A DNA stretch of 64,000 bases from a bacterium (lineage in GTDB: Bacteria; UBA4055): contig JAKQBN010000055.1 of the NCBI GenBank assembly GCA_029559475.1, forward strand, positions 7,089-71,088. The letters are read 5' to 3'. Of this stretch, positions 1,112 to 63,076 are shown one piece after another (positions within the stretch are counted from its first letter, which is position 1; each line of letters starts with the position of its first letter). Below the pieces are notes generated by a model that was given only the letters and a program-made list of their open reading frames with translations, was not told the DNA's origin and made no database searches. The position numbers and the translations under genes are program-made.

Positions 1112-4100
1112 ATGGTAATGTTTAAGAATTATTTGAATGCAATAAAAGATCAGATAATTTCTGGGAATGTGCTTGAGAGAAATTTAAGAGCAGCAATTAA
1201 TAATTTATTAAATGAAATAATAAAAGAAAATAATCTGAAGCTATTATTAACTGAAGAGCCTGAAAAAAAAGAAATATTTGGCACTCCTGATTTTAAAATA
1301 ACATCGTCCCATAATATTATTGGCTATATAGAAACAAAAAAAATCGGTGAAGATTTAGATAAAATAATCAAATCCGATCAAATAAAAAAGTATCAAGAAC
1401 TGTCAGATAATATTTTATTGACTAACTATCTTGAGTGGGTATGGATAAAGGATAAAACTGTAAATAATAGGGCTGTGTTGTGTGATTTCTCAGACTTGGA
1501 GAAATCAAAATACAAACTAGAATCAAGTAAAATTGAAGCTGTAAGTAATATTATTAGTAATTTTTTTTCACAACCACCAATAGGGATTTCAGATTCAAAG
1601 AAACTTGCAAATGTACTTGCAATTAGAGCTAAATATCTTAAAGCATTTATTTTGGAGGAATTAGAAAATGAAGACAAAAAATCTGAGACGAGTAAATTAT
1701 CTGGACTTTATTCGACATTTCGTGACTTTGTTTTTGACCAGCTTAGTTTAAGCGAGTTCGCAGATGCTTTCTCCCAAACTCTAGTCTATGGTCTTTTTTT
1801 AGCTAAGCTAAATGCTGAAACAAACAAAATTGATCTATATAACGCAAAGAAATTTATTCCACAATCTTTTATTTTAATTAAAGAACTTGTGAATTTTCTC
1901 GATGAACTTGATAATGAGGAATATAAGCCTATTCGTTGGATTGTTGAAGAAGTTTTGACTGTTGTTAACAATTTGGATTTAGAATCAATTTATAGCGGTT
2001 TATCTTTCAAAACCAGAAAGAAGGACCAAGATGATTTTACAATTAAAGACCCATATGTTTATTTCTATGAAGATTTTCTGGGAGCTTACGATTCCAATTT
2101 AAGAAAATCAAAAGGTGTGTACTTTACCCCACCAGCGATAGTCAATTTTATTATCGATAGTATAGATGAAATAATAAGAAAAATGTTTGAAGTAAAGGAA
2201 GGTCTTGCGGACCATAAAAAAATTACTGTATTAGATTTCTCCACAGGAACAGGTACATTTTTAGTGGAAATAATTCAGAAAATTTTTGAAACTTTACCTA
2301 AAGGTTCAGGTAAGCGCAAACTTTTAATTAAAGAACATATTTTAAAAAATCTTTATGGGTTCGAATATATGATTGCGCCTTACACTATCAGTCATCTTAA
2401 ATTGTCACAGTATTTAAAAGATGAAGGTTACGACTTACAAGCCGATGAACGCTTTCAAATATACCTAACTAATACACTTGTACCAATGGATGGGCAATTA
2501 AAAATTCCTCTATTGCCCGCCTTATCAAAGGAAATTGAATCTGCACAAAAAGTGAAGGATTTCCCAGTTTTAGTAATAACTGGTAATCCACCGTATAGTA
2601 TAAAGTCAAAAAATACTGGTGACTGGATAACGCAACTTTTAAAAGGTATTGATATCTCTTCAGATGGGAAAAAAGACCATCAATTAAGCTATTATATGGT
2701 AGATGGGAAGCCCTTAAATGAGAGGCAAAATTGGTTAAGAGATGATTATGTGAAATTTATTAGTTTTGCGCAATGGAAGATGCAGAAAGTAGAGAATGGT
2801 ATTATTGGCATAATTACAAATCATACATTTTTGGATGGTATTACTTTTGGAGGGATGAGACAAAGTTTATTAAATAGTTTCGATCAAATGTTTTTTTTAG
2901 ACCTTCACGGAAGTGCTAAGAAAGAAGAAAATGTTCCTGACGGCATAAGGAATGATCCGGTATTCGATATAGGGCAGGGTGTTTCTATTTCTTTTTTTAT
3001 AAAAAAAAGAGGATTAGATAAAAAGGTGTATCATGCAGATATGTGGGGCAGTCGTGTTGAAAAATATAAGCAATGCTTTGAGAACTCAATATTTACATTA
3101 GACTGGAAAGAAATAAATCCTGTGTCTCCATATTATTTTTTTGTGCCTCGTACTGGTAATTTCAAAGAAAAATACGATACTTACTGGTCTGTTACTAAGA
3201 TATTTAAGGAATTCAGCCTACCAATAATGACTGGAAATGATCAAATAGCTATACAATTTAGGAAAGATGAAATTGAAGTCATTGTAAATGATGTAAAATC
3301 GATTACAGAAGATGAATTAAAAAATAAATATAAAATGAATGATAAAAAAATGTCTTGGATAGTCAATTCAAAAAAAGAAATTACAATGTCAAATTTTGAT
3401 GCATCTTTTTTTCAGATCGTTTCTTATCGCCCATTCGATAAAAGGATAACATATTTTACTGGCAAAAGCAATGGTTTTCATAGCCGTCCTGGTACAATTA
3501 CTAAGCATATGTTGTATGAAAACATAGGAATGCTTCTTCCAAGGCAGTTGGCAAGCAAATCTTTCCAGCATGTTTTCTGCACAGGAACTATTCCTGATTA
3601 TAACTGTATATCAACATCACAAAAAGAAGCAAATCAACTTTTTCCGTTGTACATTTATTACGAGGATATTATTGGAGATAAATGGCAAACAACTCGAAAA
3701 TCAAATTTTACTGACGAATTTAACAAATTCATCAGTACTAAATATAAAAGTGAATTTAAGCCTGAGCAAATATTTGGATATATCTATGCCGTGTTACATA
3801 GCGAAACATACAGAGAGAAATATTTTGAATTTTTAAAAGATGAATTCGCAAAAATACCATTTGTTTCTAAAATTGATGATTTTAGAATTATATCTGAAAA
3901 AGGAACAGAATTAGTAAATGCACATTTGTTAAAATCATTTACAAAGTCAGGATTTGGTATTTTTATGGGTGAAGGTTCTAATGTTGTTGATAAGATTGAG
4001 TACAATGAGATGTCAAAAACAATATCAATGAACAAAAGTCAATGTTTTGAAAATGTACCAGTTGAAGTTTATAATTTTAAAATCGGTGGATTTAAGCCCA

Positions 4101-4246
4101 TTTATCAATTTCTAAAAAGTAGAAAAGGTCGGTCATATCCTTTGACTTTAGATGAAATTGAGACTGTAGAGAACATAATAAATGTTATTGCTTTTACTAT
4201 TGAGAAAATGGAAGAGATAGAGGAATTAACAAAAGATTGGATATAA
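1112..4246 (+). CDS. single-polypeptide Type IIG/IIL-like restriction-modification enzyme (PD-ExK nuclease + N6-adenine methyltransferase + target-recognition region)
   Basis: 1044-aa ORF. N-terminal PDF...GYIETKK (PD-ExK-like). MTase motif I LDFSTGTGTF and motif IV GNPPY. Long C-terminal region with an FPLY motif typical of Type IIG/ISP-type specificity domains. RBS aggag (1106-1110) is better spaced for the second ATG at 1118. Confidence 0.8.
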   Translation: MVMFKNYLNAIKDQIISGNVLERNLRAAINNLLNEIIKENNLKLLLTEEPEKKEIFGTPDFKITSSHNIIGYIETKKIGEDLDKIIKSDQIKKYQELSDNILLTNYLEWVWIKDKTVNNRAVLCDFSDLEKSKYKLESSKIEAVSNIISNFFSQPPIGISDSKKLANVLAIRAKYLKAFILEELENEDKKSETSKLSGLYSTFRDFVFDQLSLSEFADAFSQTLVYGLFLAKLNAETNKIDLYNAKKFIPQSFILIKELVNFLDELDNEEYKPIRWIVEEVLTVVNNLDLESIYSGLSFKTRKKDQDDFTIKDPYVYFYEDFLGAYDSNLRKSKGVYFTPPAIVNFIIDSIDEIIRKMFEVKEGLADHKKITVLDFSTGTGTFLVEIIQKIFETLPKGSGKRKLLIKEHILKNLYGFEYMIAPYTISHLKLSQYLKDEGYDLQADERFQIYLTNTLVPMDGQLKIPLLPALSKEIESAQKVKDFPVLVITGNPPYSIKSKNTGDWITQLLKGIDISSDGKKDHQLSYYMVDGKPLNERQNWLRDDYVKFISFAQWKMQKVENGIIGIITNHTFLDGITFGGMRQSLLNSFDQMFFLDLHGSAKKEENVPDGIRNDPVFDIGQGVSISFFIKKRGLDKKVYHADMWGSRVEKYKQCFENSIFTLDWKEINPVSPYYFFVPRTGNFKEKYDTYWSVTKIFKEFSLPIMTGNDQIAIQFRKDEIEVIVNDVKSITEDELKNKYKMNDKKMSWIVNSKKEITMSNFDASFFQIVSYRPFDKRITYFTGKSNGFHSRPGTITKHMLYENIGMLLPRQLASKSFQHVFCTGTIPDYNCISTSQKEANQLFPLYIYYEDIIGDKWQTTRKSNFTDEFNKFISTKYKSEFKPEQIFGYIYAVLHSETYREKYFEFLKDEFAKIPFVSKIDDFRIISEKGTELVNAHLLKSFTKSGFGIFMGEGSNVVDKIEYNEMSKTISMNKSQCFENVPVEVYNFKIGGFKPIYQFLKSRKGRSYPLTLDEIETVENIINVIAFTIEKMEEIEELTKDWI

Positions 4247-4744: not shown

Positions 4745-5326
4745 ATGAAGAAAAAAGATAAGTTGAAAATTATGGTATCATCCACTGTTTACGGCAGGGA
4801 GTATGAACTTGAACAAATTTACGCTATACTTACAGGCTATGGTTACGAAGTTATCATGTCTAAGGAAGGTTCGGTTTATCTGCCTGCCGGGGCTTCTATT
4901 CCTGAGTCTTGTCTAAAGGCTGTAGAGGACTGTGATTTGTTTTTGGGTATAATATTCCCTCGTTATGGTTCAGGAATTACTCATCAGGAATTTAAAAAAG
5001 CGATTGAATTGGGTAAACCAAGATGGTTTATTGCTCATCAATATGTGAATTTTGCCAAAAATATATTGGACCAGTATATGTTTAAAAAAGACGGCACTTT
5101 GAACATATCGTTTAAATTTAAAGAAACTTCTATGTTGGATAGTGCCGATATTGTGCACATGTACAATGATGCAGTATTGAATCATTTGAAGCCTGAAGAG
5201 AGAAGATCTAACTGGGTGCATCATTTCTTTAAAACGGATGAGATATTCACTTTTTTGAAGACGCAATTTGAACCTATCGAATCGAGGTGTGCTGAGATAG
5301 AAAAAATAAAGGGAACAAGAAAATGA
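4745..5326 (+). CDS. DUF4062-like protein (TIR / nucleoside deoxyribosyltransferase-like fold)
   Basis: N-terminal pattern KIMVSSTVYG..E...IY..L...GYEV...CL.AVEDCDLFLGII.PRYGSGITHQEF..A.ELGKP resembles the DUF4062 signature. Its stop overlaps the next start (ATGA at 5323-5326). Confidence 0.55.
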   Translation: MKKKDKLKIMVSSTVYGREYELEQIYAILTGYGYEVIMSKEGSVYLPAGASIPESCLKAVEDCDLFLGIIFPRYGSGITHQEFKKAIELGKPRWFIAHQYVNFAKNILDQYMFKKDGTLNISFKFKETSMLDSADIVHMYNDAVLNHLKPEERRSNWVHHFFKTDEIFTFLKTQFEPIESRCAEIEKIKGTRK

Positions 5327-6774
5327 AAGAAAATCAAATAATCCAAAACTTGATTGCCGATGGAGAAAATGAACAGCTTGGATTCAAATCGGATGTTCTC
5401 AAAGATTCAATTGCTAAAATTATTTGCAGTTTTTTGAATTCAAAGGGCGGTACGGTTCTTATCGGTATTGATGATAAAAAAAATATTGTCGGTGTGAAAA
5501 ATGCCGATAAACTTAAAGCTGACCTCGAAAATTATCTTGTTGCTGCCATTGTACCTGAAGCCCCAGTAACAGTTTCTATAGAAAAAATTAACGGTAAAAA
5601 ATTATTGCTATTAAAAGTTTGGGGCGGTTCTAAGCAGCCGTACATTTTTAACGGTAGCATTTATTATCGAAGAGGAAATATTACTCAGAAAGCTACCTCA
5701 AAAGAGATTTCAGACCTGATCCACAACAGATCAATTTCTGAAAAGAACTGGGAAAGGCAGGTATTTACAGAAGTAAGCTTGGAAGATCTTGACAGTAAAT
5801 TAATTATAGAAACGATTAAAGAATCGCATAAGAACAATAAGACTAATTTCACCGGTGATGACATTTTAAAATTCCTTATTCACTACGGGCTGTATGAAAA
5901 CGGTGCTTTTACAAAGGCTTGTGTAGTTCTATTCGCAAAAAATCCTGTAAGGTTTTTACCGCAGATCAGAGTAAGGCTGACCGAATACCCCGAATCTAAA
6001 ACAGATAAAGCATTAATTAGAGACAAGTATTTTGAAGGTAATCTTTTTAGAATAAGAGAAGATATTGAGAAATATATAAATGGCTTAGGAACAAGAAGCG
6101 TTTTTGACAAGAATCAATGGAAACGCATTGATTTTTCTTTCCCGAAAAAAGCTTTGCAGGAAGGCGTGATAAATGCTTTAATACATCGTGATTATTCCAG
6201 CTCGACAAGCGGAGTGGCAATAAGCGTATATCCCGATACTTTTGTTATTTCAAACAGCGGTAAGTTTCCTGATGATATTCAGATAAAAGATTTAAAAAGA
6301 AACCACAGGTCGCATCCTGTTAATCCTGATATTGCCCACATAGTTTATTTGCGGGGATTCATTGATAAACTTGGCAGAGGTACGGTAAAGTTAGTTGAAG
6401 AATGCCGTAGTGCCGGATTGAAGGAACCGGTTTGGAAAGAAACTTCAGAAGGTGTGACTTTGACTTTTCATGGCCCAAAAGCACTTTCAGAGAGAAAGCA
6501 GCAAAATGAGGCTGTAAATGAGGCTGTAAATGAGGCTGTAAAAATAAGATTATGTAAGGAACTTGTTACTATTTATGTTGAAAAAGGAATAGGATTAAAG
6601 GAACTTATGATTAAATTCAATATGTCAAGAGCTACATTGCAGAGAGATATTGCAGTTTTAAAAGAATATAATTTAATAATATTTGCCGGTTCAGCTAAGA
6701 CAGGTGTTTATAAATTAACCGAAGAACTGAAAGGGAAACTTGACAGTGTTCCAGCAGCGGGAAATAAAAGTTAG
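5323..6774 (+). CDS. AlbA_2 (Schlafen-type) / HATPase_c_4 / C-terminal wHTH protein, putative regulator or sensor
   Basis: The N-terminus EQLGFKSD...ICSFLNSKGGTVLIGIDD..NIVGV is typical of AlbA_2 (divergent AAA_4). The central ALQEGVINALIHRDYSS..GVAISVY resembles the RecG-like HATPase_c_4 region. The C-terminal SRATLQRDIAVLKEYNLI is HTH-like. Confidence 0.7.
   Translation: MKENQIIQNLIADGENEQLGFKSDVLKDSIAKIICSFLNSKGGTVLIGIDDKKNIVGVKNADKLKADLENYLVAAIVPEAPVTVSIEKINGKKLLLLKVWGGSKQPYIFNGSIYYRRGNITQKATSKEISDLIHNRSISEKNWERQVFTEVSLEDLDSKLIIETIKESHKNNKTNFTGDDILKFLIHYGLYENGAFTKACVVLFAKNPVRFLPQIRVRLTEYPESKTDKALIRDKYFEGNLFRIREDIEKYINGLGTRSVFDKNQWKRIDFSFPKKALQEGVINALIHRDYSSSTSGVAISVYPDTFVISNSGKFPDDIQIKDLKRNHRSHPVNPDIAHIVYLRGFIDKLGRGTVKLVEECRSAGLKEPVWKETSEGVTLTFHGPKALSERKQQNEAVNEAVNEAVKIRLCKELVTIYVEKGIGLKELMIKFNMSRATLQRDIAVLKEYNLIIFAGSAKTGVYKLTEELKGKLDSVPAAGNKS
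6505..6540 (+). repeat. perfect 12-bp x3 in-frame tandem repeat (aatgaggctgta, encodes NEAV x3)
   Basis: Read directly: 6505-6516, 6517-6528 and 6529-6540 are identical. It lies in the linker before the C-terminal HTH of the 5323-6774 protein. Confidence 0.95.
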
Positions 6775-6783
6775 ACAGGAAGA

Positions 6784-7215
6784 TTAGACGGGTTGAAGTC
6801 CAGTTGTACAGACAGTAAGGTCGTAAAAAGTGGTCTGTTCTTCGCCGGATTCTGTCTTTACCGTTACGCTGTAGCCCGCGTTGATTTTGTCGGCGGACAT
6901 TTTCTTCGAGAATTCCGATAAGATGCGTTTAATGCTCTCGGTTATCTCATTGGTCTGTATAGTAAAAGAAAAGTCTTTTTTCCTTCTCACGCGCACCCAT
7001 CCCTTAGCGAACAGGCTCTTCATGATTTCTTCTCTGGCTTTTCCTTCCCAGCCGTATTTCTCATGATACTTATCGAAAGCGTCTCTGACCTCATCAGCAC
7101 CAAAACCGAAATATTCCGGATCTGCGAGTATGGCAGATATGTGCTTGTTTTCGACCGGAGTGACTTTTCCGTCAGGGCTGATCCAGTATGCTTCTTTTGC
7201 AGTTTCGAATTCCAT
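6784..7215 (-). CDS. hypothetical protein
   Basis: Intact 143-aa ORF, convergent with 5323-6774. No domain recognised. Confidence 0.5.
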   Translation of the reverse strand: MEFETAKEAYWISPDGKVTPVENKHISAILADPEYFGFGADEVRDAFDKYHEKYGWEGKAREEIMKSLFAKGWVRVRRKKDFSFTIQTNEITESIKRILSEFSKKMSADKINAGYSVTVKTESGEEQTTFYDLTVCTTGLQPV

Positions 7216-7263
7216 GCATTAAATTTAACCGAAAAAAGAAATAAAGTCAAAAAGTTTTGAGAC

Positions 7264-7339
7264 CGCCATTATTTGGCGTTATCACTGTATTATATTACAT
7301 CCGGTATCAAAAGTTGTCTAAACTTAACCGGAGGAAAAA
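7264..7339 (+). promoter_or_regulatory. conserved leader copy A (hairpin cgcca-ttatt-tggcg + tatatt box + RBS)
   Basis: The 17-mer cgccattatttggcgtt (7264-7280) is identical to 11346-11362. Downstream blocks ttatatt / ccgg(t)at / taaact occur in the same order in both copies. It ends in ggagg RBS + ATG 7340. Confidence 0.5.
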
Positions 7340-7612
7340 ATGGAAGATCAGGTAAAAAAAATTGACAGAAGCGTGACTTCACACGCATACATTGAGATCA
7401 GAGACCTGAGGCGGTTCGCGCTTAAAGGGAACAAAATATCGGTATTTGACAACGAAGTGCTTAAGGCTGAATACGAGTTCCAGCTGGAATTCGAGGCCGG
7501 CGGGGCATATCAGAAGATAAATTATGTAATGGCGTGCGGAGGCAAAAGCCTGATAATCAAGCTGACTACAGAAATACCAGACCTCGAGATCGAGGAGTTT
7601 CATATAACATAG
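7340..7612 (+). CDS. hypothetical small protein (first gene of MoxR-VWA module)
   Basis: 90-aa ORF with ggagg RBS, 21 nt upstream of the next ORF on the same strand. Confidence 0.5.
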   Translation: MEDQVKKIDRSVTSHAYIEIRDLRRFALKGNKISVFDNEVLKAEYEFQLEFEAGGAYQKINYVMACGGKSLIIKLTTEIPDLEIEEFHIT

Positions 7613-7633
7613 AAAGCGAGGGAATAACAGAAT

Positions 7634-7927
7634 ATGAAAGTATTACAAAACATTATAGATTATCTTCTGCAGGAGAACAAAATCAAGCAGGATGATTATA
7701 ATTACCTTCAGCAGAAGGGTTTTTATGTCTTAGATTATGATGATCTGGATTTTTATGATGACGGATACTGGCGCATAGTTGAACAGGAAAATGAAGATTA
7801 TTGGAAGTATTATGAGGAAGATTATAATGATATTGAATTTGAGCCTTCTTTAGCAGATAAAAGAAGAAGAAAACAGGGTAGAAGAGCCCGTTTTGAAGGA
7901 CCGAAAAGAATCCGGCGGGCAGCATAA
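7634..7927 (+). CDS. hypothetical small protein, D/E/Y-rich core with basic tail
   Basis: 97-aa ORF. The central DYDDLDFYDDGYWRIVEQENEDYWKYYEEDYNDIEFE is followed by KRRRKQGRRARFEGPKRIRR. Confidence 0.5.
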   Translation: MKVLQNIIDYLLQENKIKQDDYNYLQQKGFYVLDYDDLDFYDDGYWRIVEQENEDYWKYYEEDYNDIEFEPSLADKRRRKQGRRARFEGPKRIRRAA

Positions 7928-7947
7928 ATAAGACTGGAGATAAATTT

Positions 7948-8961
7948 ATGATGGAAACGATCACTTTGAACCAGGCTAAGTCGCTGATCAAGGCTCTGGC
8001 AGCTAAAGAAAGTATATTATTGCTGTCAGCTCCCGGAGTAGGAAAATCAGATATCGTGAGGCAGGCAGCAACTGAAGCGGGTCTTGAATGCCGTTCGCTG
8101 CTCGGAACTCAGATCGCTCCGGAAGATGTGAGCGGAATACCCCGTATAGTAAATGAACGCTCCGTATTTTGTCCTCCTCGGATCTTGTTGCCGGAAGATC
8201 CCAAGCCATTCTGTCTGTTCCTTGATGAATTTCCCGCTGCCGCACCGGATGTCCAGAAAGCACTGTACGCTTTACTTCTTGAACGCCGTCTCGGTGAACA
8301 TTTACTGCCTGAAGGTACATGGGTAGTCGCCGCGGGTAACAGGCAGGAGGACAGAGCGCTTGTACGGCAGATGAGCAGCGCGCTTGTGAACAGGACTTTT
8401 GTCATGCAGGTAAGGGTGGATGTGAAGGAATGGATGATATGGGCGCAAAAGAACAAGGTCAGGCAGGAGATTTTATCGTTTATAGCATTTTTGCCCGAAG
8501 CATTGATGCGTCAGGTACCGGCAGAATCAGTTCCGTTCTCTACACCGAGAGCTTGGGCGTCTTTGTCAAATGCTCTTGATCTTGCGGAAAAAGCCGGAAT
8601 TCTCGACGATGAATTGTTTCGAGCCCTTTGTTTCGGGAGAGTATCGCCTGCCGATGCCGCTATTTTTTGTTCAATCAAAGAAATGAAAATAGATCAGTTC
8701 CTTCCGGCTGAAAAATATGTACTCGATCCTGATATGTTGCCAAAAGAGCATACTTCGCTCTGGTTCCTGCTGAACCTTATACGCAGCAGACTGTTGAAAA
8801 AAACAATTGAATTTGAGCCTGTAGTGATAAATAAGTTTCTTATGAGCCTGCCTCAGGAACAAAGATTTGCGATGTTTGCGGACTCTGTAAAAGAATGGGG
8901 AGAGCTTGGAGCTCAGGAAGCTTTACTTGAATCGCTAAAAGAAATAACGGTGTTATCATAA
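7948..8961 (+). CDS. MoxR-like AAA+ ATPase (AAA_5 type)
   Basis: Walker A LSAPGVGKS, Walker B CLFLDEF, sensor region VVAAGNRQEDRA. The size (337 aa) is typical of the MoxR family. Confidence 0.85.
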   Translation: MMETITLNQAKSLIKALAAKESILLLSAPGVGKSDIVRQAATEAGLECRSLLGTQIAPEDVSGIPRIVNERSVFCPPRILLPEDPKPFCLFLDEFPAAAPDVQKALYALLLERRLGEHLLPEGTWVVAAGNRQEDRALVRQMSSALVNRTFVMQVRVDVKEWMIWAQKNKVRQEILSFIAFLPEALMRQVPAESVPFSTPRAWASLSNALDLAEKAGILDDELFRALCFGRVSPADAAIFCSIKEMKIDQFLPAEKYVLDPDMLPKEHTSLWFLLNLIRSRLLKKTIEFEPVVINKFLMSLPQEQRFAMFADSVKEWGELGAQEALLESLKEITVLS

Positions 8962-8963
8962 AT

Positions 8964-10163
8964 ATTAATGAAAACATACTTCAAGAAGCAAAACAGGCAC
9001 TGCATATTGTCCGCATAACCGTTCCGTATCTTGCCGAACTTGCCGATGCTGTAGAACTTATACCGGATGACAGGATCGAAACCGCAGGTATATTTGCTTC
9101 GGGAAGGCTGATATTTAATCCTGAGTGGTTTGCAAAACTTTCATTAAGAGACAGATCGTTTGTCATTGCGCATGAAATTATGCATCTCGCGCTTAGAACT
9201 CATCACCGGACACTCATTCAGGACAGAGAACTGTTTAATATCACACATGATTTTATAATTAATGAATATCTAAAAGAGTCGTTTGGTCTGACTGAAACTC
9301 CGGCGGACGGCCTTGACTGGCAGACTGAATTCGGACGATATTACGATATAAAAGACAAACCGGCAGAAGAACTTATGAAGTTTATAAAAGACTCTTTCGG
9401 TAAGGAGCTTGATCGAAAAAGGATATACAGGCTGGTTTGCGATGTGTTTTCTGATGAGCTGGAATTAAAATTATTTCCCGGTCTGTCAATTCAAGATCTA
9501 ACTGCAAGAAAAGCAGACATAAATAGCAGATCGTTCAAGGCTATCAGCACCAAACTCATAATTGATAAAGCTGATTTAATCTTCGGAAAGGGTACAACTA
9601 CCGGCGATAATTCAAGTACTTATGATATGATTAGATCATTATATAAACCGCCGTGGGAGGCGGCTTTACAGAGCTGGATTGATTTCGCCATTCGGACAGG
9701 CCATACCTATTCACGCCCGAGCCGAAGAGGACAGAGCGCAGATTATGTTTTGCCCGGATATAAAAGGGAAGGCCATACACTGCATATTCTTGTTGACACA
9801 AGCGGTTCAATGTCAGGCGCACTAGGAATAGTACTGGGCGTAATAGCATCTTTCTGTGATGATCTGCAGGTTGAAAACATTCACATAATTCAATGTGATG
9901 CAGGTGTAAGCGACGACAACTGGTTTACGCCAGATCAATTAAACAGATTTAAGGTAAAAGGGCTCGGAGGAAGCGATATGTCTCCCGGAATGTATCGCCT
10001 GCAAAATGACCCTGAAGTCCAATATGCCCTGATAATTACCGACGGTTATATTGATTATCCGACGATCTCTATGCCATATCAGGTTCTCTGGGTATTGACG
10101 GAACAAAATTGCAGCTTTAAACCGGATTACGGTCAAATCATCAGTTTGCCTGCGTTGAAATAA
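8964..10163 (+). CDS. putative metallopeptidase (DUF2201_N-like, HExxH) + VWA domain protein; start codon unresolved
   Basis: The frame is open from 8931. Translation gives ...PYLAELA...FNPEWF...FVIAHEIMHLALRTHH (HExxH) and a C-terminal VWA MIDAS motif LVDTSGSMSG. No in-frame ATG/GTG/TTG occurs before 9180. The start here is set at ATT 8964 as a placeholder (see finding). Confidence 0.7.
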   Translation: MNENILQEAKQALHIVRITVPYLAELADAVELIPDDRIETAGIFASGRLIFNPEWFAKLSLRDRSFVIAHEIMHLALRTHHRTLIQDRELFNITHDFIINEYLKESFGLTETPADGLDWQTEFGRYYDIKDKPAEELMKFIKDSFGKELDRKRIYRLVCDVFSDELELKLFPGLSIQDLTARKADINSRSFKAISTKLIIDKADLIFGKGTTTGDNSSTYDMIRSLYKPPWEAALQSWIDFAIRTGHTYSRPSRRGQSADYVLPGYKREGHTLHILVDTSGSMSGALGIVLGVIASFCDDLQVENIHIIQCDAGVSDDNWFTPDQLNRFKVKGLGGSDMSPGMYRLQNDPEVQYALIITDGYIDYPTISMPYQVLWVLTEQNCSFKPDYGQIISLPALK

Positions 10164-10292: not shown

Positions 10293-10439
10293 TTCCCAGA
10301 GTTATCGTCGCGCTGATCGTGCTGCAGGGATTGTAAGCTACTCATTAAATTTCAGATAAAAAATATCATATTTAGATAAGAGTGTCATTAGATGAACGTC
10401 ATCGTTTCGTATATTGCGGGTAAGTAAGCGGAGATTTTT

Positions 10440-11333
10440 ATGAATACGCATGAATTAGAAAAGTTTGATGAAGATATCATCAGGGACAAGATCTATTCGA
10501 TCCGGGGATTTCAGGTAATGCTGGATTCTGATCTGGCAGAATTGTATGGTGTTGGGACTAAGATACTTAATAAAGCAGTGAAAAGAAATAGCGCTAGATT
10601 CCCTGCGGAATTTATGATGAAATTAACTCAGGATGAATACGAATGTATTTCAAACTTGAGGTTCCAAAATGGAACCTCAAGTTGGGGTGGTACAAGATAT
10701 CTTCCTTTTGTTTTCACTGAGCAGGGAGTTGCAATGCTCGCAGGAATTTTAACTAGTGAGACAGCTATAATAATCAGTATTAAGATTATCAAAGCTTTTG
10801 TCGAGATGCGTAAATTCATTCAATCAAATGCGCAGGTGTTTCAAAGACTTGATAGAGTAGAAATCAAGCTGATAGAAAATGATGTTAAATTCGATAAATT
10901 GTTTACCGCTCTTGAGAATAAAAAATTCCAGCCTAAGCAGGGAATATTTTATGACGGGCAGGTTTTCGATGCGTATAAGTTCGTGTCAGACCTGTTCAGG
11001 AGCACGAAAAGTTCCATTCTTATAATAGATAATTATATTGACGATTCGGTTCTGATTCATCTGACAGTGGTTTCAAAAAGCGTAAAGGTTAAGATACTCA
11101 CGAAATCTATATCGGATAAGCTTGTTTTGGATATAAAAAAGTTCAGCGAACAGTATTATCCTATTGAGGCTAAAGTATTCACTCTCGCGCATGATAGGTT
11201 CATTATTATTGACGATAAAGATGTTTATCACTTTGGAGCATCATTGAAAGACTTGGGAAAAAAATGGTTCGTGTTCTCGAAGATAGAGAAGTCTGATATG
11301 GAATTATTAAGCAGGCTGGAGAAAGTGAAATAA
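10440..11333 (+). CDS. ORF6N (KilA-N-like) domain DNA-binding protein
   Basis: IYSIRGFQVMLDSDLAELYGVGTKILNKAVKRNSARFPAEFMMKLT is the classic ORF6N signature. Confidence 0.8.
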   Translation: MNTHELEKFDEDIIRDKIYSIRGFQVMLDSDLAELYGVGTKILNKAVKRNSARFPAEFMMKLTQDEYECISNLRFQNGTSSWGGTRYLPFVFTEQGVAMLAGILTSETAIIISIKIIKAFVEMRKFIQSNAQVFQRLDRVEIKLIENDVKFDKLFTALENKKFQPKQGIFYDGQVFDAYKFVSDLFRSTKSSILIIDNYIDDSVLIHLTVVSKSVKVKILTKSISDKLVLDIKKFSEQYYPIEAKVFTLAHDRFIIIDDKDVYHFGASLKDLGKKWFVFSKIEKSDMELLSRLEKVK

Positions 11334-11345
11334 TTTTTATCCAAG

Positions 11346-11417
11346 CGCCATTATTTGGCGTTGTTCCAATGTTATATTCCGGATATGAATGTTAAACTCA
11401 GAAAAAGGAGAAAAAAT
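11346..11417 (+). promoter_or_regulatory. conserved leader copy B (same hairpin + tatatt box + RBS)
   Basis: Carries the 17-mer identical to 7264-7280 and collinear downstream blocks. It ends in aggag RBS + ATG 11418. The ORF-track start at 11355 falls inside this element. Confidence 0.5.
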
Positions 11418-13064
11418 ATGAAGGGACCGGTACACATAAAACTGATAGAAATAGCATCTGATGAGATGAACCTGACGAGACAGGTAAATACGGACGAGAT
11501 AAAAATGCTTATGAACGATTACGGTCTTACGAACAGCGAGGCCGTAATTTTCGCTTTTCTTTTAAAATATTCCATGGAAAGAACTCACCTCGAACTTGAA
11601 AAATTCGACAATCAGATCGTACGCAAAGGCGATGAAAATTATATAAGAATATACAGAGACCTTAAAAGCATGCAGAAGAAAGGTGTCATCGCGTTGAACG
11701 CGGAAGGCAGAAGGAGAAGGGGGGACGACCTTTTTAATCCCGCTATATCAATAGATGAAGCCGTTTTTTCAAGATTAGTCCTCGGAGAGGATATGTTCGC
11801 CGATACCGATTTTTCCTGCCCGTACTCTATACTCGAAACCGCGGATGAAGTAATAGACTCTAGGCTGGCTGAAAAGATATCCGGCGAGCAGTTCGAAAAA
11901 AGGATCGATATGCTAATGTCCAAAGCCGATCATAGCCTTGAATTAGTAAAAGTCCTGAAAAAATATGAAATAATAGAAAAAGCGCTGATCTTCAGAGCCT
12001 GCCTGAACGAAATAAAAGGCGACAGCGACGATACGATCAACGGATTCATATCAAATTTCGTATCATCCCTTTCGGAATCCGGAAGGATAATGAAGAAAAT
12101 ATATGAAAAGCGTATGAAATGCTTTAACGACAAGGTACTTGAGCTTAAAGACGGCCGCGGGATATTCGGGCTTATGGGTAATCCGGTTTTCATTATAACG
12201 GAAAAATATTTCGAGAAGATGTTCGATACGAAAACAAAGATCAAGATAAAAGAATTCACTCCGCGCTATACAGAACTTGTTAAGCACAAGGATATGAAAA
12301 AAGAACTTTTTTTCGAGCCGGGATTGAAAAAGGAAATAGATACGATCGCTTCCGCGCTCGAAGCAAAAAGATTTAAAGAAGTCTCGAAAAAGCTTAAAAG
12401 CAACGGGTTCCCTCAGGGTATAGTATCTATATTATACGGGTATCCCGGTACAGGGAAGACAGCGAGCGTTCACGAGATCGCAAGAGTTACGGGACGCAAC
12501 ATACTTCAGGTCGATATATCGAACATAAAGGATATGTACGTCGGCGAAAGCGAAAAGAGACTGAAGGATGTTTTTAAGGAATACAAAAAAGCGAAGAACA
12601 TTTTTAAAAAAGCTCCTATCCTTCTTTTCAACGAGGCTGACGCCATAATAGGTAAAAGGATCAATGTGTCCGACAGCGTGGACCAGATGTATAACAATAT
12701 GCAGAACATAATTTTGGAGGAGCTTGAAAAATTCGAGGGTATATTCTTCGCCACGACTAACATGATAAACAACATAGATGACGCTTTCGACAGAAGATTT
12801 TTATTCAAGGTGGAATTCGGAAAACCTTCACCCGAGATCAGAAAAAGGATATGGTCGTCCAAAATGAAAGATATTCCTGAGGAGTGGACAGATATCCTTT
12901 CGGTCTATGAGCTTACCGGAGGCCAAATAGACAACATAGTAAGAAAATACATGATCGACAGCGTGTTGAAAGATGTAAAAGGTATCGACGGGCTCAAAAA
13001 GTTTTGTTATGCGGAAACTGCTTTTAAAAAGGAAGGAACCCGCATTATCGGTTTCGGAAGATAA
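11418..13064 (+). CDS. AAA+ ATPase (classic AAA clade) with ~330-aa N-terminal non-ATPase region
   Basis: Walker A GYPGTGKT, Walker B ILLFNEAD, sensor-1 FFATTN, Arg-finger region DDAFDRRF. The start was moved to MKGPV (aggag 7 nt upstream). Confidence 0.8.
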   Translation: MKGPVHIKLIEIASDEMNLTRQVNTDEIKMLMNDYGLTNSEAVIFAFLLKYSMERTHLELEKFDNQIVRKGDENYIRIYRDLKSMQKKGVIALNAEGRRRRGDDLFNPAISIDEAVFSRLVLGEDMFADTDFSCPYSILETADEVIDSRLAEKISGEQFEKRIDMLMSKADHSLELVKVLKKYEIIEKALIFRACLNEIKGDSDDTINGFISNFVSSLSESGRIMKKIYEKRMKCFNDKVLELKDGRGIFGLMGNPVFIITEKYFEKMFDTKTKIKIKEFTPRYTELVKHKDMKKELFFEPGLKKEIDTIASALEAKRFKEVSKKLKSNGFPQGIVSILYGYPGTGKTASVHEIARVTGRNILQVDISNIKDMYVGESEKRLKDVFKEYKKAKNIFKKAPILLFNEADAIIGKRINVSDSVDQMYNNMQNIILEELEKFEGIFFATTNMINNIDDAFDRRFLFKVEFGKPSPEIRKRIWSSKMKDIPEEWTDILSVYELTGGQIDNIVRKYMIDSVLKDVKGIDGLKKFCYAETAFKKEGTRIIGFGR

Positions 13065-13065
13065 G

Positions 13066-13090
13066 AAAAAAGCGGGAATATCCCGCTTTC
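13066..13090. terminator. bidirectional intrinsic terminator between convergent genes
   Basis: Stem agcggga (13071-77) / tcccgct (13081-87), loop ata, flanked by an A-run and a T-run. Confidence 0.6.
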
Positions 13091-13091
13091 T

Positions 13092-14309
13092 TCATCTCTC
13101 TTTGCAGAGGCATGTGCCCTGAGGGACAGAGTTTATCACGAATCCCCTTTTAGCCGAAGCCAGAAATTCTTTATTGCCTATTATCGAAGCCAGCTTTCCG
13201 TCGTGAGAACACAAAAGCACTTTTCCGACATTCGCATTCTGAACATGGAATAAACATTTCGAGTTACCTTCTATTATATTGTTTCTCATCCAGTTCTCGA
13301 ACCTGCTTCTGTTGTTCGGGCCTACGGGAAGGATGATATCGCTTATCACTTTCCAGCCTTTCTGCGGAACTGAAGGCTCGTTATTATCGATAAAAAGATA
13401 CGAATAGTTAAGCTGTCTGTGATCGATCCCGGTTATCCTGTCTATGAAGGTGACGCCTTCAGGGACGTACCATGTGTTCTTGAACCAGCACCAGTCTGTC
13501 CTTTCGCTCTCTGAAGACAACGGGCATTCAAGAGTGTGAAGGCAGGGCGAAAGTACGCGGAACTTCCCGTGCATCTCTTTTAAAAGGGCGTTCCTTAAAG
13601 AACCGAGGGATCTCGAATGAACGTCCTGCCCGGGCTCGATGATAAGGAGGTTCCCTTTCATTACATTGATCAGGGATTCAAGCGTGACCAGCCTGTGTTT
13701 TTCAGGAATCTCGTTAAACACGTTAGCGCACAGTATGATGTCCGCATTTTCGGGAACTTTCAGCGCGGAGCTGTAATTATTATGTTCGATTTCAAGTGAC
13801 GGAAAAGCGGCTTTCAGAAGTTCAAACCCGGCATTGAGCATATTTGACGATCTTTCAACCGACATTATCTTTATCTTCTTTCCGGTCAGATCGATCCCCG
13901 CGAAATCCAGCGAGATCAGAAAGCCGGCGGTCGCGCTCAGCGGTCCCGCTCCAAAATCAAGTATCACAAGTTCGTCCTGACATTTGCAGATATTTTTTAA
14001 AAGATGCGCGTTCTGCCTGTTGGTCAGGATAGCGAAAGTCCTCTGAATGTTCGGCATGTAAAAAGATGATATGTAGGCGGCGACGAATTTCTTTTCATCT
14101 GAATACTTTTTCGTAAATTCGTCCCTGTTCTCATTGAATGACTTCCATAATGTCTTGATCCTGTCCCTGAGCCTGTCGCTCTCAGATCTTTTCTTATCTC
14201 CTTCGAGGGTGGAAAAGTCTTCCGTACCGATTATCATCTTCTGCCAGGATGAATAGAAAGCATTCCAGTCGAAGTGCCTGTATTTCAAATACGAGTTGAA
14301 TGAGCTCAT
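13092..14309 (-). CDS. Rsm22-like SAM-dependent methyltransferase (putative ribosomal small-subunit associated)
   Basis: SAM-binding LDFGAGPLSA. C-terminal Cys/His cluster CLHTLECP...WCWF as in bacterial Rsm22-family proteins. Start set at MSSFNS (aaggaaaacaATG). Confidence 0.6.
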   Translation of the reverse strand: MSSFNSYLKYRHFDWNAFYSSWQKMIIGTEDFSTLEGDKKRSESDRLRDRIKTLWKSFNENRDEFTKKYSDEKKFVAAYISSFYMPNIQRTFAILTNRQNAHLLKNICKCQDELVILDFGAGPLSATAGFLISLDFAGIDLTGKKIKIMSVERSSNMLNAGFELLKAAFPSLEIEHNNYSSALKVPENADIILCANVFNEIPEKHRLVTLESLINVMKGNLLIIEPGQDVHSRSLGSLRNALLKEMHGKFRVLSPCLHTLECPLSSESERTDWCWFKNTWYVPEGVTFIDRITGIDHRQLNYSYLFIDNNEPSVPQKGWKVISDIILPVGPNNRSRFENWMRNNIIEGNSKCLFHVQNANVGKVLLCSHDGKLASIIGNKEFLASAKRGFVINSVPQGTCLCKER

Positions 14310-14398
14310 TGTTTTCCTTTGTTTTAAAATCCGCCCAAATATAACAGAATCTTCAGATAAAAGACAGAAATATTTTTTATTAATTTGTTTTAAATTGC

Positions 14399-14427
14399 TT
14401 GACTTTATGCTCAAAAATTTTTATCAT
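14399..14427 (+). promoter_or_regulatory. sigma70-type promoter for the kdsD-...-hppA operon
   Basis: TTGACT (14399-14404), 17-nt spacer, TATCAT (14422-14427), about 55 nt upstream of ATG 14482. Confidence 0.4.
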
Positions 14428-14481: not shown

Positions 14482-15456
14482 ATGAAAAAAATGTCAGAAA
14501 AGAAGATAATTCAATTAGCAAAAAACGTATTTGAGACCGAGATAAAAGAGCTTGTCAGGGTTTCAGAGAAGATAGACGGAAGTTTTTATAAAGCCGTTAA
14601 ACTTATTCTCGAATGTAAAGGAAAATTGATAGTATCCGGAATGGGAAAATCGGGTCTTATCGGCAGAAAGATAGCCGCGACTTTATGTTCGACAGGTACG
14701 CTGGCGATATATATGCATCCGGCTGAAGGGCTTCACGGCGATCTCGGTGTTGCTGAAGATAACGATGTAGTGATAATGATCGGCAAAAGCGGCGAATCGG
14801 ATGAGATAGTTTCTATGCTTCCAGTGCTCAAAAAGATCGGCTGTAAAATAATAGCTATTACCGGAAACATAAATTCCACGCTTGCAAAGAACTCGGATGT
14901 CATACTCAATTCATACGTGGAAAAAGAGGCATGCAGCCTTAATCTCGCACCGACTTCAAGCACGACGGCCGCGCTCGTTATAGGAGATGCCATAGCCGCC
15001 GTACTTTCGCAGCTCAAGAATTTCAAAGAGGAGGATTTCGCTCTTTTCCATCCGGGCGGAACCTTAGGCAAAAGGCTTCTTTTAAAAGTCTCGGATTTCG
15101 TTCATCCTCTGTCTGAAACTGCAGTTTGCACAGAAGATACAAAATTCAGGGATGTTCTTATCAGAATGAGCGAAAGAAATCTCGGAGCCGCTTTAATAAT
15201 CGAAGACGGGAAACTTAAGGGAATAATCAGTGATGGCGATATAAAAAGGATACTTACAAAATTCACAAACGCGGATAACCTTACCGCCAAAGAGATGATG
15301 ACTCCTAATCCCAAGACGATCGAGTATGATATGATGGCGTATGATGCGTTGAAGATCATGAGATCGAGCGGAAGTTTCAGCGTAATGCCCGTTCTTCAGA
15401 ATGACGGACCCGCAGGCCTGATCAAACTTCACGACCTGCTGAAATCAGGTTTATAA
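14482..15456 (+). CDS. kdsD: KpsF/GutQ-family arabinose-5-phosphate isomerase (SIS + tandem CBS)
   Basis: SIS motif VSGMGKSGLIGRKIAATL...GESDE, then two CBS-like repeats at the C-terminus. Confidence 0.85.
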   Translation: MKKMSEKKIIQLAKNVFETEIKELVRVSEKIDGSFYKAVKLILECKGKLIVSGMGKSGLIGRKIAATLCSTGTLAIYMHPAEGLHGDLGVAEDNDVVIMIGKSGESDEIVSMLPVLKKIGCKIIAITGNINSTLAKNSDVILNSYVEKEACSLNLAPTSSTTAALVIGDAIAAVLSQLKNFKEEDFALFHPGGTLGKRLLLKVSDFVHPLSETAVCTEDTKFRDVLIRMSERNLGAALIIEDGKLKGIISDGDIKRILTKFTNADNLTAKEMMTPNPKTIEYDMMAYDALKIMRSSGSFSVMPVLQNDGPAGLIKLHDLLKSGL

Positions 15457-61018: not shown

Positions 61019-63076
61019 ATGAAACTTTTAGGAAATATTATCGCTTTGCTGATTGTTGTAGTAATACTTGCAGGATGCGTAAGCACTGCGTATAAGACCG
61101 CAACTATTGCGAATACGATTGCATCTTACGATCAATTCCTTAGAAATCATCCTGGCAGTCAATTTGAATCTGATGCCCGGAGTCGGCTCGACTCGCTGTA
61201 CTTTCAGAGTACCGAGTGGGAAGGTTCGATCCAGGCGTATGAGAACTTCCTTCAAGTGCACAAGAACTCTCCCTATATAGCAGAAGCCCGGAGTCGGCTC
61301 GACTCGCTGTACTTTCAGAGTACCGAGCGGGAAGGTTCGATCTATGCGTATGAGAACTTCCTTCAAGTGCACAAGAACTCTCCCTATATAGCAGAAACCC
61401 GGAGCCGGCTCGACTCGCTGTACTTTCAGAATACCGAGAAGTACTGGGCAGCTGCGCAAGAGACCGACAATATCGAAGGATATGTGGCATTCCTTGATGA
61501 ACATCCCGGGTCGTCTCGTACAAAGGAGGCAACAGCACGAAAAGAATTGCTCGAAAAACACTTGGACGAATGGAAAGATGTCATGCGTAATCCTACCAGG
61601 CAGAGTCTCATGCTTTACTGCGACCGGAATTCGGATAGCCCTTACCTCACAAAAGCAAGGGTTGTAATTCAGGACATGGAAGGACGCGACATCGTCGATC
61701 TCCTGAATGAAAAAAAAGTCGAGATTGAGACCAATGGCAGTGGAATTCAGGAGATAAGAGCCCGTATCCGGAAGCTTGTAGATTATCCTATAAGGGTTCT
61801 TTTTCCTATTGGTAGCTACTTTGTCTCCTCCAGGCTGTCGGCGCAGAACATGGTATCGACAGCAGAGACGAGCATGCATCTTACAGGCAGCGAATGGAAA
61901 TCGGTTTCGATATCGGCAGCATGCGCTAATAGACTAAAGCATATTCCTGGTTCAGAAGACACGTTCACTGTTCAGCGATTATATTTGGAGGAACTGGCTA
62001 GAATTATGCCTGTTCTTGATAAGGCAGGTGTGAGTTACGAAACACGCCAAGCAGCAGTATGGATTGTGACGGACAATGCCGATTACAATGATCTTGGAAT
62101 CCTTGTCCAAGACGACAGAAGTCGAGAAATAAACGAACTTGAAGCGGCGCGTGCCATGAAGATTTGCGTCGAAGCTGGTATTGATATCCGGCTGAAGAGA
62201 ATCTGGAGCGACTGGCAGGAGATTATTACTGGATTGCATGACGCTGAATTGAAGACATGGTTCGCTATTTACGGAGCACATTTTCTTGATTCAGATAAAA
62301 AAAGTGCTAAAGATCGAAATAACAAAAAGGTACAGAAAAATATTGAAGCAATCCCTGAAATGGTATTTGTGGAGGGTGGTACGTTTCAGATGGGAAGTAC
62401 TAGCGGAGATCAAGATGAAAAGCCTGTTCATAATGTAACACTTTCTGATTTTTACATCGGCAAGACTGAGGTGACACAGGCGCAGTACCAGGCTGTCATT
62501 GGCGAAAATCCGTGTTGTTTTAAAGACGATAATTTACCGATAGTAAATGTGTCTTGGTACGATGCAGTTAATTTCTGCAATAGGCTTAGTGAAATGGAGG
62601 GACTGGATATTTGTTACAGTGAAAACGATTTTAAAATTACCTGTAATTTCAAAGCCAAAGGGTACAGGCTCCCGACTGAGGCTGAATGGGAGTATGCAGC
62701 AAGAGGGGGGAATAATAGCAAAGGATACAAGTATTCCGGAAGCAACAATGCAGATGATGTTGCCTCAGAGTATGGTTCGAATCCATATTCTGTAGCAGCA
62801 AAACAGCCTAATGAAATTGGTATATATGATATGAGTGGAAATGTCTGGGAGTGGTGCTTTGATTGGTACCGCAGTTACATGAACAGTCCAAGTAATAATC
62901 CAACAGGGCCAAGTTCGGGCTATAATATAATCTGCAGTGGCATCTGGGACCACTTTGTCGGGTTCTGCCGCGTCCTACGGGGCGGCGACTGGAAATACCG
63001 GTGTGTTGATCGATACTACTATCCCCCATGGCGCAGAATCAACCGCGTCGGCTTTCGTGTCGCAAGGACGCCTTGA
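61019..63076 (+). CDS. lipoprotein with TPR-like repeats and C-terminal FGE-sulfatase (SUMF1/EgtB/PvdO-type) domain
   Basis: Lipobox LAGCVS. The C-terminus carries GGTFQMGS...DEKPVHNVTLSDFYIGKTEVT, YRLPTEAEWEYAARGG, NVWEWCFDWY, RVLRGGDW and GFRVARTP. Confidence 0.85.
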   Translation: MKLLGNIIALLIVVVILAGCVSTAYKTATIANTIASYDQFLRNHPGSQFESDARSRLDSLYFQSTEWEGSIQAYENFLQVHKNSPYIAEARSRLDSLYFQSTEREGSIYAYENFLQVHKNSPYIAETRSRLDSLYFQNTEKYWAAAQETDNIEGYVAFLDEHPGSSRTKEATARKELLEKHLDEWKDVMRNPTRQSLMLYCDRNSDSPYLTKARVVIQDMEGRDIVDLLNEKKVEIETNGSGIQEIRARIRKLVDYPIRVLFPIGSYFVSSRLSAQNMVSTAETSMHLTGSEWKSVSISAACANRLKHIPGSEDTFTVQRLYLEELARIMPVLDKAGVSYETRQAAVWIVTDNADYNDLGILVQDDRSREINELEAARAMKICVEAGIDIRLKRIWSDWQEIITGLHDAELKTWFAIYGAHFLDSDKKSAKDRNNKKVQKNIEAIPEMVFVEGGTFQMGSTSGDQDEKPVHNVTLSDFYIGKTEVTQAQYQAVIGENPCCFKDDNLPIVNVSWYDAVNFCNRLSEMEGLDICYSENDFKITCNFKAKGYRLPTEAEWEYAARGGNNSKGYKYSGSNNADDVASEYGSNPYSVAAKQPNEIGIYDMSGNVWEWCFDWYRSYMNSPSNNPTGPSSGYNIICSGIWDHFVGFCRVLRGGDWKYRCVDRYYYPPWRRINRVGFRVARTP
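61175..61440 (+). repeat. 111-bp (37-codon) tandem repeat, about 2.4 copies, inside the lipoprotein gene
   Basis: Copy 1 (61175-61285) and copy 2 (61286-61396) differ at 3 positions. A third partial copy starts at 61397. Confidence 0.9.

Follow-up and report, generated by a model that had tools for sequence, protein, structure and literature searches.

A palindrome-bearing promoter element before unrelated genes of a bacterial defence island, with a WYL-domain protein as its candidate regulator

When two gene clusters of one genomic island share an upstream leader, do they form a single functional system, or do separate systems answer to a common control? The question is raised by a stretch of 64,000 nucleotides (nt), hereafter the window, from a bacterium of the UBA4055 lineage (assembly GCA_029559475.1, contig JAKQBN010000055.1, positions 7,089 to 71,088), in which a leader of about 70 nt precedes both a unit encoding a MoxR-type ATPase with a VWA-like protein and, 4 kb further on, the gene for a 548-aa AAA+ ATPase. 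From this repeat the original prediction had taken the two ATPase modules to be co-regulated and had suggested that they belong to one functional system. We argue that the leader probably contains one of many copies of a portable promoter with a built-in operator, through which a WYL-domain factor would control unrelated defence cassettes, and that the two modules may be members of one regulon and not parts of one machine.

The repeat itself is exact by direct reading. The 17-mer CGCCATTATTTGGCGTT stands at 7264-7280 and at 11346-11362, as had been claimed, and has no other match on either strand of the 64 kb at up to three mismatches; a repeat finder lengthens the pair (family D12) to 33 nt at 82% identity. 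The blocks TATATT, CCGG(T)AT, TGT, TAAACT, a Shine-Dalgarno site and ATG follow in the same sequence in both copies, and the two proposed starts, ATG 7340 and ATG 11418, are indeed each preceded by a Shine-Dalgarno site. The AAA gene starts at 11418 rather than at TTG 11355, since the alignment with homologues begins at the methionine of 11418. An exact 17-mer pair would by itself be only mildly unexpected (in mononucleotide shuffles of the window, such pairs number 0.2 on average). The repeat is not a chance event, however, because a profile built from 19 copies in other genomes, with the window copies excluded, finds both window sites and nothing else (7262-7303, E 5.7e-7; 11344-11382, E 8.2e-7; next-best match, E = 2).

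Both window copies, delimited by the sequence, a consensus of 22 copies and the profile, lie on the plus strand and share one plan. Copy A begins with a 23-bp imperfect palindrome at 7260-7282, composed of AGACCGCCA (7260-7268), the spacer TTATT (7269-7273) and TGGCGTTAT (7274-7282), with the core CGCCATTATTTGGCG at 7264-7278. A putative -10 box, TATATT, follows at 7291-7296, 13 nt after TGGC and in the same register as in the aligned copies; a weak -35 hexamer might be read in TTATTT (7269-7274), which leaves a 16-nt spacer to TATATT. The leader (7297-7342) carries the Shine-Dalgarno site GGAGG at 7330-7334 and ends in ATG 7340 of a 90-aa open reading frame (ORF). In copy B the palindrome occupies 11342-11364 (CAAGCGCCA at 11342-11350, TTATT at 11351-11355, TGGCGTTGT at 11356-11364; the same core, CGCCATTATTTGGCG, at 11346-11360), and the putative -10 box TATATT at 11373-11378 is preceded by TG at 11370-11371, as in extended -10 elements. 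Its leader starts at 11379 and bears GGAG at 11407-11410 before ATG 11418.

The anatomy of the family was derived from a gapless alignment of 22 distinct copies. The core, GCC(A/G)-TTATN-TGGC, hardly varies. Both 9-bp arms of the 23-bp palindrome follow one half-site consensus, ACTCCGCCA, read as A-C-T-(C/A)-C-G-C-C-A, around a 5-bp spacer TTATN, whose first four bases are invariant and stand in a single orientation throughout. From TGGC to the hexamer TA(T/A)ATT (C is also seen at its third base) the distance is 13 nt in all 22 copies, and a T-run lies about 10-15 nt 5' of the palindrome. The leader after the -10 box is A/T-rich, spans about 20-35 nt and is followed by a strong Shine-Dalgarno site, as is usual in this lineage, and by a start codon 29-43 nt past the hexamer. 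Of eight departures from the palindrome, seven (five A to G, two C to T) affect the arm distal to the promoter and one affects the proximal arm. Sequence rather than pairing is conserved, which points to a dimeric DNA-binding protein over an RNA structure. The notion that the central spacer base N is genome-specific, as co-evolution would have it, fits the window, L097 and L011 but was discarded, as L133 has C, T and G (L numbers denote the fetched loci, all of which were searched with regular expressions and the profile; L003 is the contig of the window itself).

If TATATT is taken as positions -12 to -7, the palindrome extends from about -43 to -21, with its centre near -32. No consensus -35 hexamer is present there, the sole -35-like sequence being the spacer TTATnT (two of six matches, 16-nt gap). 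Canonical promoters do occur in the same host: TTGACT-N17-TATCAT before the housekeeping gene at 14482 and TTGATA-N17-TATATT before the WYL gene described below. A TG-extended -10 box occurs in about 40% of copies. To judge from this layout, each copy would be a sigma-70-type promoter with a predicted operator built in at the -35 position. Two other promoter classes were rejected on inspection: a Bacteroidetes-type promoter (TTTG at -33 with TAnnTTTG at -7), where the gap between TTTG and TATATT is 15 nt and not about 20 and strong Shine-Dalgarno sites are also used, and a sigma-54 promoter (GG-N10-GC), where the GC dinucleotide 10 nt past GG is not conserved. On the minus strand, a promoter-like TAGACA-N17-TAATAT (7292-7320) overlaps the plus-strand TATATT of copy A. 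It would place the palindrome in the leader of the divergent 143-aa gene (6784-7215), whose homologues are cassette genes in L011, L131 and L134, and one bound factor could then govern both directions.

The original prediction had proposed a genome search for further copies, and such copies are plentiful. A third lies on the contig of the window at L003 2188 (element L003 2176-2270), about 470 nt 5' of window position 1, and likewise at L004 2216-2376; a 246-aa WYL gene directly precedes it, and it is followed by a truncated DUF6847 ORF, DUF7663 and a restriction enzyme. In all, about ten related metagenomic loci hold at least 22 distinct copies, with three in L009, five in L011 (two of them weaker), two in L131 and three in L133, while L097 holds three copies of the main type and two of a second variant in 6.3 kb; L113, L114, L115, L122 and L125 likewise bear copies. 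An exact-pattern scan of metagenome contigs gave 31 matches, of which those with the full anatomy fall in seven loci and represent six distinct copies (L097, L113, L114/L116, which hold one and the same copy, L115, L122 and L125). We do not count the remaining matches as elements: they lie inside genes or lack a Shine-Dalgarno site and ATG, and look like chance hits on 19 specified bases. NCBI labels the proteins of the metagenome-assembled genome GCA_035422465.1, to which the window was assigned, "Clostridiales bacterium"; the relatives bearing the element are labelled Candidatus Delongbacteria. A phage origin was rejected, as viral contigs gave no hits. The DUF6847/DIP1984-like remnant after the third copy comprises 27 codons (MKLAEALINRKDLE...); the gene is intact (151 aa) in the close relatives L133, L134 and L137, and also in L011 and L131.

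The genes served by these copies have little in common. Those behind the pattern-scan copies encode proteins of 316, 173, 262 and 309 aa and an AAA homologue, most without a Pfam family, and across all copies the downstream proteins are mutually unrelated and belong to at least ten other gene families, mostly of no assigned function. The element precedes island genes only. Occurrence upstream of many unrelated genes, the mark of a generic promoter, had been named in advance as the finding that would refute the original prediction. Unrelated island genes are what we find, yet the element is not a generic housekeeping promoter, because the housekeeping gene at 14482 has the canonical TTGACT-17-TATCAT and no other window site matches.

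What, then, would read the element? The most likely regulator, judging by gene neighbourhood, is a WYL-domain protein. WYL or WYL-WCX genes were recognised with Pfam in nine motif-bearing loci (the window contig, L011, L014, L097, L114 with two, L116, L122, L131 and L133), and in L003, L011, L014, L097 and L122 a distance of 3-44 nt separates the WYL stop codon from the copy that follows. On the window contig, the end of the 246-aa gene (L003 1433-2173) is 14 nt from the third copy, a short way beyond the edge of the window. A word-based protein search for its relatives gave two clusters (P0257, P0258), and the loci picked solely through them all show the order WYL, element, DUF6847, with more copies besides. 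Among the six loci selected by the motif, a WYL gene is found in three, an ORF6N gene in two and the AAA gene in one. In Bacteroidota, distant WYL genes again flank an AAA homologue, and in L067 the palindrome ATGCCACAAGTTGGCAT stands 9 nt after a WYL stop and before a Bacteroidetes-type TAnnTTTG box, so the GCCA-N5-TGGC core survives a change of promoter type. The two proteins originally suggested for electrophoretic mobility shift assays appear less suitable: the ORF6N gene has a variant promoter of its own, and the AlbA_2 protein recurs less often than the WYL regulator.

Several observations concern the WYL genes in their own right. Distant WYL genes lie upstream of, downstream of or divergent from homologues of the AAA+ protein with winged-helix-like units in L022, L041, L047, L051, L067 and L086, which represent several phyla, and the two genes may together constitute a recurrent module. 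In L085, consecutive genes are preceded by three TGCCACTTTTTGGCA palindromes. The gene for the 246-aa WYL protein follows its canonical promoter with a leader of about 190 nt that is conserved across four genomes (L003 1255-1432, L011 11857-12019, L131 380-556, L133 5090-5288). This leader contains, for example, AAAGGTGAATAC and a variable hairpin in which changes are apparently compensatory; Rfam gave no match to the leader, which could represent a cis-regulatory RNA not recognised so far.

Would such a protein activate or repress? Searched against solved structures, the profile of the island WYL proteins matches DriD alone at E about 1e-6 (7TZV, 7U02, 8TP8, 9PFQ) and PafBC weakly (7P5X, E 0.27), and BrxR/CapW structures give no match at E <= 10. 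The island proteins carry (K/R)WYL (ERWYLAA, GRWYLAA, GKWYL(M/I)A) and do not show the signature RWHVR. PafBC/RDRM of Actinobacteria, the second-best structure match, resembles the predicted arrangement as a WYL activator whose motif substitutes for the -35 element. It is a heterodimer-like fusion with a non-palindromic motif, however, whereas the site described here is a symmetric palindrome, implying a homodimer. In the DriD promoters of Caulobacter crescentus, a pseudo-palindromic site of about 20 bp lies over the -35 region, always equally far from the -10 box, and a -35 hexamer is not recognisable (PMC13004042, PMC10853764), and cryo-electron microscopy places sigma region 4 on the opposite face of the DNA (PMC13004042). 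The island elements agree with DriD in all these respects of layout (a pseudo-palindrome of about 20 bp over the -35, a fixed -10 distance, no -35 and several promoters in one regulon), and DriD is the sole solved regulator family matching the island WYL proteins by sequence. They differ from it in the sequence of the site, in their targets (defence cassettes as opposed to the DNA-damage genes of DriD), in the window-adjacent WYL protein, which is short (246 aa) and has no detectable WCX domain, and in the organism, a member of an uncultured Delongbacteria-like lineage; activation, moreover, is a prediction here.

DriD-like activation is favoured because the site replaces the -35 hexamer at an invariant distance, because the WYL proteins resemble only DriD among solved regulators and because they bear (K/R)WYL. 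On balance, we therefore think it probable, going by sequence comparison, that the copies are portable cassettes of promoter, operator and leader that would form an island-wide regulon under a DriD-like WYL factor, with activation as the favoured mode. A dimeric transcription factor would bind the two half-sites of the palindrome, which stand in place of the -35 hexamer at a fixed distance from the -10; bound to its ligand (by analogy, single-stranded DNA), the WYL protein would recruit RNA polymerase to otherwise weak promoters, and several independent defence cassettes would be switched on at once. On the window contig such a regulon would comprise the DUF6847 remnant with DUF7663 and the Type ISP-like enzyme, the unit of the 90-aa ORF, the 97-aa ORF, MoxR and VWA, and the AAA+ gene with its winged-helix-like region. 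The stronger statement, that a DriD-like activator and not a repressor switches on the whole island through a plug-in cassette, about 75 bp long, that stands in front of many unrelated defence genes, draws on analogy and is offered tentatively, as a possibility with the balance against it.

Several points weigh against an island-wide regulon under a WYL activator. The available contigs of L006 (17.6 kb), L009 (17.7 kb), L115 (5.6 kb) and L125 (13.5 kb) contain no WYL gene, and in these loci a WYL factor could work only in trans. Co-localisation is inflated by the general frequency of WYL regulators in defence islands. The 246-aa protein shows in Pfam a WYL domain only and no WCX dimerisation domain; longer forms with WYL and WCX are found in L097, L014, L116, L122 and L133. 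The TATATT hexamer, from which all phasing is counted, is itself a putative -10 box. The seven departures in the distal arm, of eight from the palindrome in all, are compatible with G-U pairing on the sense strand, which a pure protein-site model does not predict. Some copies, namely the roughly 40% with a TG-extended -10, may be active without a -35, and the characterised defence-associated WYL regulators (BrxR, CapW) are all repressors (PMC11662680, PMC9122601, PMC13622015).

These last two points support the strongest alternative, in which the same element and the same WYL candidate work as in the BrxR/CapW type of wHTH-WYL-WCX repressor: a dimer over the -35 would block RNA polymerase until a ligand (single-stranded DNA arising from damage or a restricted infection) releases it. 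BrxR acts on 11-bp inverted repeats with a 5-bp spacer, in two boxes (R-BOX1 and R-BOX2) of one defence island (PMC9122601). The island described here has a WYL gene inside it, inverted repeats (with 9-bp arms) around a spacer of the same 5 bp, more than one box per island and a box downstream of the regulator gene that would control the next promoter; a centre at about -32 is also the classical position for occlusion. RWHVR in place of WYL, however, is the signature of the CapW/BrxR repressor group (PMC11662680), and the proteins here carry (K/R)WYL instead and find DriD, and weakly PafBC, in the structure search but not BrxR/CapW. For a repressor, the distance to the -10 box would not have to be fixed, yet it is 13 nt in every one of the 22 copies. 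The boxes here stand before many separate cassettes, up to three or four per 6 kb, and the promoter of the WYL gene itself has no copy, unlike that of brxR. We regard repression as possible, but as the less likely mode of action.

It is improbable, in our estimation, that the AAA+ protein itself is the binder, recognising the palindrome through its N-terminal winged-helix-like units, regulating its own gene and controlling the other promoters that bear the site. The predicted N-terminus does have two helix-helix-helix-strand-strand units, as winged helices typically do, the element stays with the AAA gene in unrelated surroundings (L006, L009, L011, L014, L114), and L006 has the element with no WYL gene within 17 kb. 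These AAA loci were selected through the AAA protein, however, so that the association is circular; in the unbiased motif scan the AAA gene is present in one of six loci (L114/L116), against three for WYL, and the AAA gene is missing from L097, L125, L131 and L133, which hold several copies.

The palindrome might instead act as a nucleic-acid hairpin in RNA or single-stranded DNA, whether as a stem-loop of the leader, as an insulator or weak terminator behind the upstream gene, or as a site of recombination or cassette joining, which we hold to be very unlikely. As RNA it would be stable (-9.5 and -10.4 kcal/mol, z about -4), it lies 12-44 nt past the stop codon of the upstream gene in several loci, the G-U compatibility noted above suits it, and duplicated cassettes or truncated ORFs adjoin some copies (L097 1349 and 3105; L133 4997; the DUF6847 remnant on the window contig). 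Yet stem and loop are conserved in sequence with no compensatory change, and one half-site consensus extends to 9 nt; orientation is fixed, as are the distances to TATATT, the Shine-Dalgarno site and ATG; the stem has no U-tract behind it and is not called by the terminator scan; and the 4-kb interval contains no recombinase, while L006 has a single copy between housekeeping genes. A search of L003 1-16000, a stretch that takes in all three copies, against Rfam 15 gave nothing at E <= 1. More specific versions of the idea were likewise rejected. A Rho-independent terminator would require a U-tract, and the hairpin is followed by the tails TTATCACT and TTGTTCCA in the window and by TAC or GAG in most other copies. 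A leader hairpin sequestering the Shine-Dalgarno site is not a family trait, with at least five Watson-Crick pairs in 3 of 25 copies (Fisher combined p = 0.37). It looked attractive in copy A, L006, L125 and L133a, and in copy A it takes the form UCCGGU/ACCGGA (-10.0 kcal/mol, z -2.2); it is absent in copy B, and the anti-Shine-Dalgarno segment is mostly upstream of the predicted transcription start. Direct repeats of the att type, flanking a 4-kb insertion, are contradicted by the lack of a recombinase, by the fixed position relative to start codons and by the single copies found elsewhere.

We can now return to the two ATPase modules. That MoxR-VWA and the 548-aa AAA+ protein form one functional system, with the leader serving their co-expression, is highly unlikely. 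It has in its favour the identical 15-bp core before both units, 4 kb apart in one island. The modules occur independently, however. All AAA homologues examined at 54-58% identity have the element upstream and none has a MoxR-VWA neighbour: in L006 the gene stands between mutS2 and a 2033-aa helicase-nuclease gene with a single element copy, in L011 after an LPG-synthase gene, in L014 after a WYL gene, and in L009 in another island. MoxR homologues, for their part, occur in many phyla at 64-82% identity, and the MoxR-VWA modules of L126, L128 and L129 (Bacteroidia, Leptospiraceae and another contig), arranged as a variable partner, MoxR and a 444-aa VWA protein, have neither a 548-aa AAA neighbour nor such a palindrome upstream, which also excludes the element as a companion of MoxR-VWA. 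The element precedes more than ten other gene families and a third module on the same contig, and the ORF6N cassette with its own promoter stands between the two units. Of the original proposal, the shared promoter-operator stands and a common trans-acting factor is probable, so that co-regulation of the two modules is plausible; the further step to one functional system is not borne out. The shared leader indicates a shared control element of host or island, not a shared mechanism. As to the small ORFs of the unit, the 97-aa product matches the conserved N-terminus (about 90 residues) of the variable MoxR partner (E 5e-12), and the 90-aa ORF has no detectable relatives in the homologous MoxR-VWA loci. 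Elsewhere the variable partner measures 221-782 aa, and some homologues are fused to MoxR (572-590 aa; P0121-P0123).

Finally, binding by the ORF6N (PDC-S05) protein, a DNA-binding domain protein whose gene ends immediately before a copy in the window (11333), in L115 (2511) and in L097 (3086), can be set aside as scarcely credible, given that ORF6N genes are themselves preceded by a variant palindrome that would be their more natural target, if any, and that ORF6N is absent from L114/L116, L122, L125, L131 and L133, all of which have copies.

The surroundings are in keeping with a defence island, which occupies window positions 1 to about 14400 according to Pfam and PADLOC. It opens with DUF7663 (280-1068) and a Type ISP/MmeI-like restriction enzyme (1112-4246), continues with DUF4062 (4745-5326), an AlbA_2-HATPase_c_4-HTH protein (5323-6774) and, on the minus strand, the 143-aa ORF of no assigned function (6784-7215), and then reaches the plus-strand transcription unit of copy A (7340-10163). 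This unit comprises the 90-aa ORF (7340-7612), the 97-aa ORF (7634-7927), the MoxR-type AAA_5 ATPase (7948-8961) and a DUF2201_N/DUF2201 VWA-like metallopeptidase (frame open from about 8964, ATG 9180, stop 10163). The ORF6N gene (10440-11333, plus strand; ORF6N E 5e-31), which PADLOC lists as the candidate defence gene PDC-S05 (E 9e-114), is a separate cassette between the two units, and its stop lies 12 nt before the core of copy B. The AAA+ gene follows at 11418-13064 on the plus strand (Pfam AAA, E 8e-25); Pfam thus agreed with the original labels, the products being a MoxR-type AAA_5, a DUF2201 VWA-like, an ORF6N and a classical AAA protein. In the AlphaFold model (mean predicted local distance difference test score 77), the 548-aa protein shows two winged-helix-like units in its N-terminal region and, in addition, a single classical AAA+ domain, and its closest solved AAA domains are VCP/Cdc48-like. 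A terminator scan called a bidirectional terminator-like hairpin, GAAGAAAGCGGGATATTCCCGCTTTTTTC (13065-13093, 13 pairs and then a T-run), between the AAA gene and a convergent Rsm22-like methyltransferase gene (13092-14414, minus strand). The AAA gene is read as monocistronic, because it is bounded by its own promoter and this terminator. Beyond lie housekeeping genes, including SIS/CBS, MutS, CTP synthase, FolC and Rho.

The variant promoter of the ORF6N gene (10380-10415, plus strand) has a degenerate palindrome, GAGTGTCA-TTAGA-TGAACGTC, and TATATT at 10410-10415, with the same 13-nt spacing as in copies A and B. A homologous GAGTG(Y)CACTATTTG(R)CACTC...TATATT precedes ORF6N/KilA-N genes in L097 (1558 and 5552), L115 and L016, and the variant suggests a second regulator with a related binding geometry. 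Other observations concern gene models and strains. The VWA-like frame is open right after the MoxR stop (8962-9180) and encodes HExxH (HEIMH), with no ATG, GTG or TTG before 9180; the NCBI product is 382 aa long with a start at 9015 (ATA), and the homologues, 444 aa long, extend over the MoxR stop. A missing 5' end of the gene may account for this, as may a non-canonical or coupled start codon. For AlbA_2/HATPase_c_4/HTH, the window has a single 483-aa ORF where the NCBI assembly of the same population (L001 3770-5357) has two, of 396 and 98 aa, and the Type ISP gene has 1044 versus 1042 aa; both differences reflect strain variation or assembly. A 111-nt unit is repeated in tandem about 2.4 times at 61172-61438 with 95-100% identity.

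The element is a new, lineage-specific case of a known kind, a transcription-factor box common to several promoters of a defence island, with an unusually modular, multi-copy deployment and a DriD-like architecture. Known island control relies on one WYL or CapH/CapP regulator per system, or on a pair of boxes within an island; the single cis-element described here marks up to three to five separate cassettes in an island and recurs in about ten related loci. The locus also corrects a tempting error, that a common leader proves two ATPase modules to be one system. The finding touches on how islands of many independent, often toxic systems stay silent and then come on together. With a defined 23-bp site and a defined candidate regulator, the regulon is directly testable, and in this lineage the motif can be used to find candidate defence genes of no assigned function. 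If the proposed regulon is real, any gene acquiring the cassette would join an inducible, island-wide immune regulon, triggered, by analogy, by single-stranded DNA. This would amount to an activator logic for phage defence, and would give an uncultured phylum a modular, plug-in promoter for defence genes as they are acquired.

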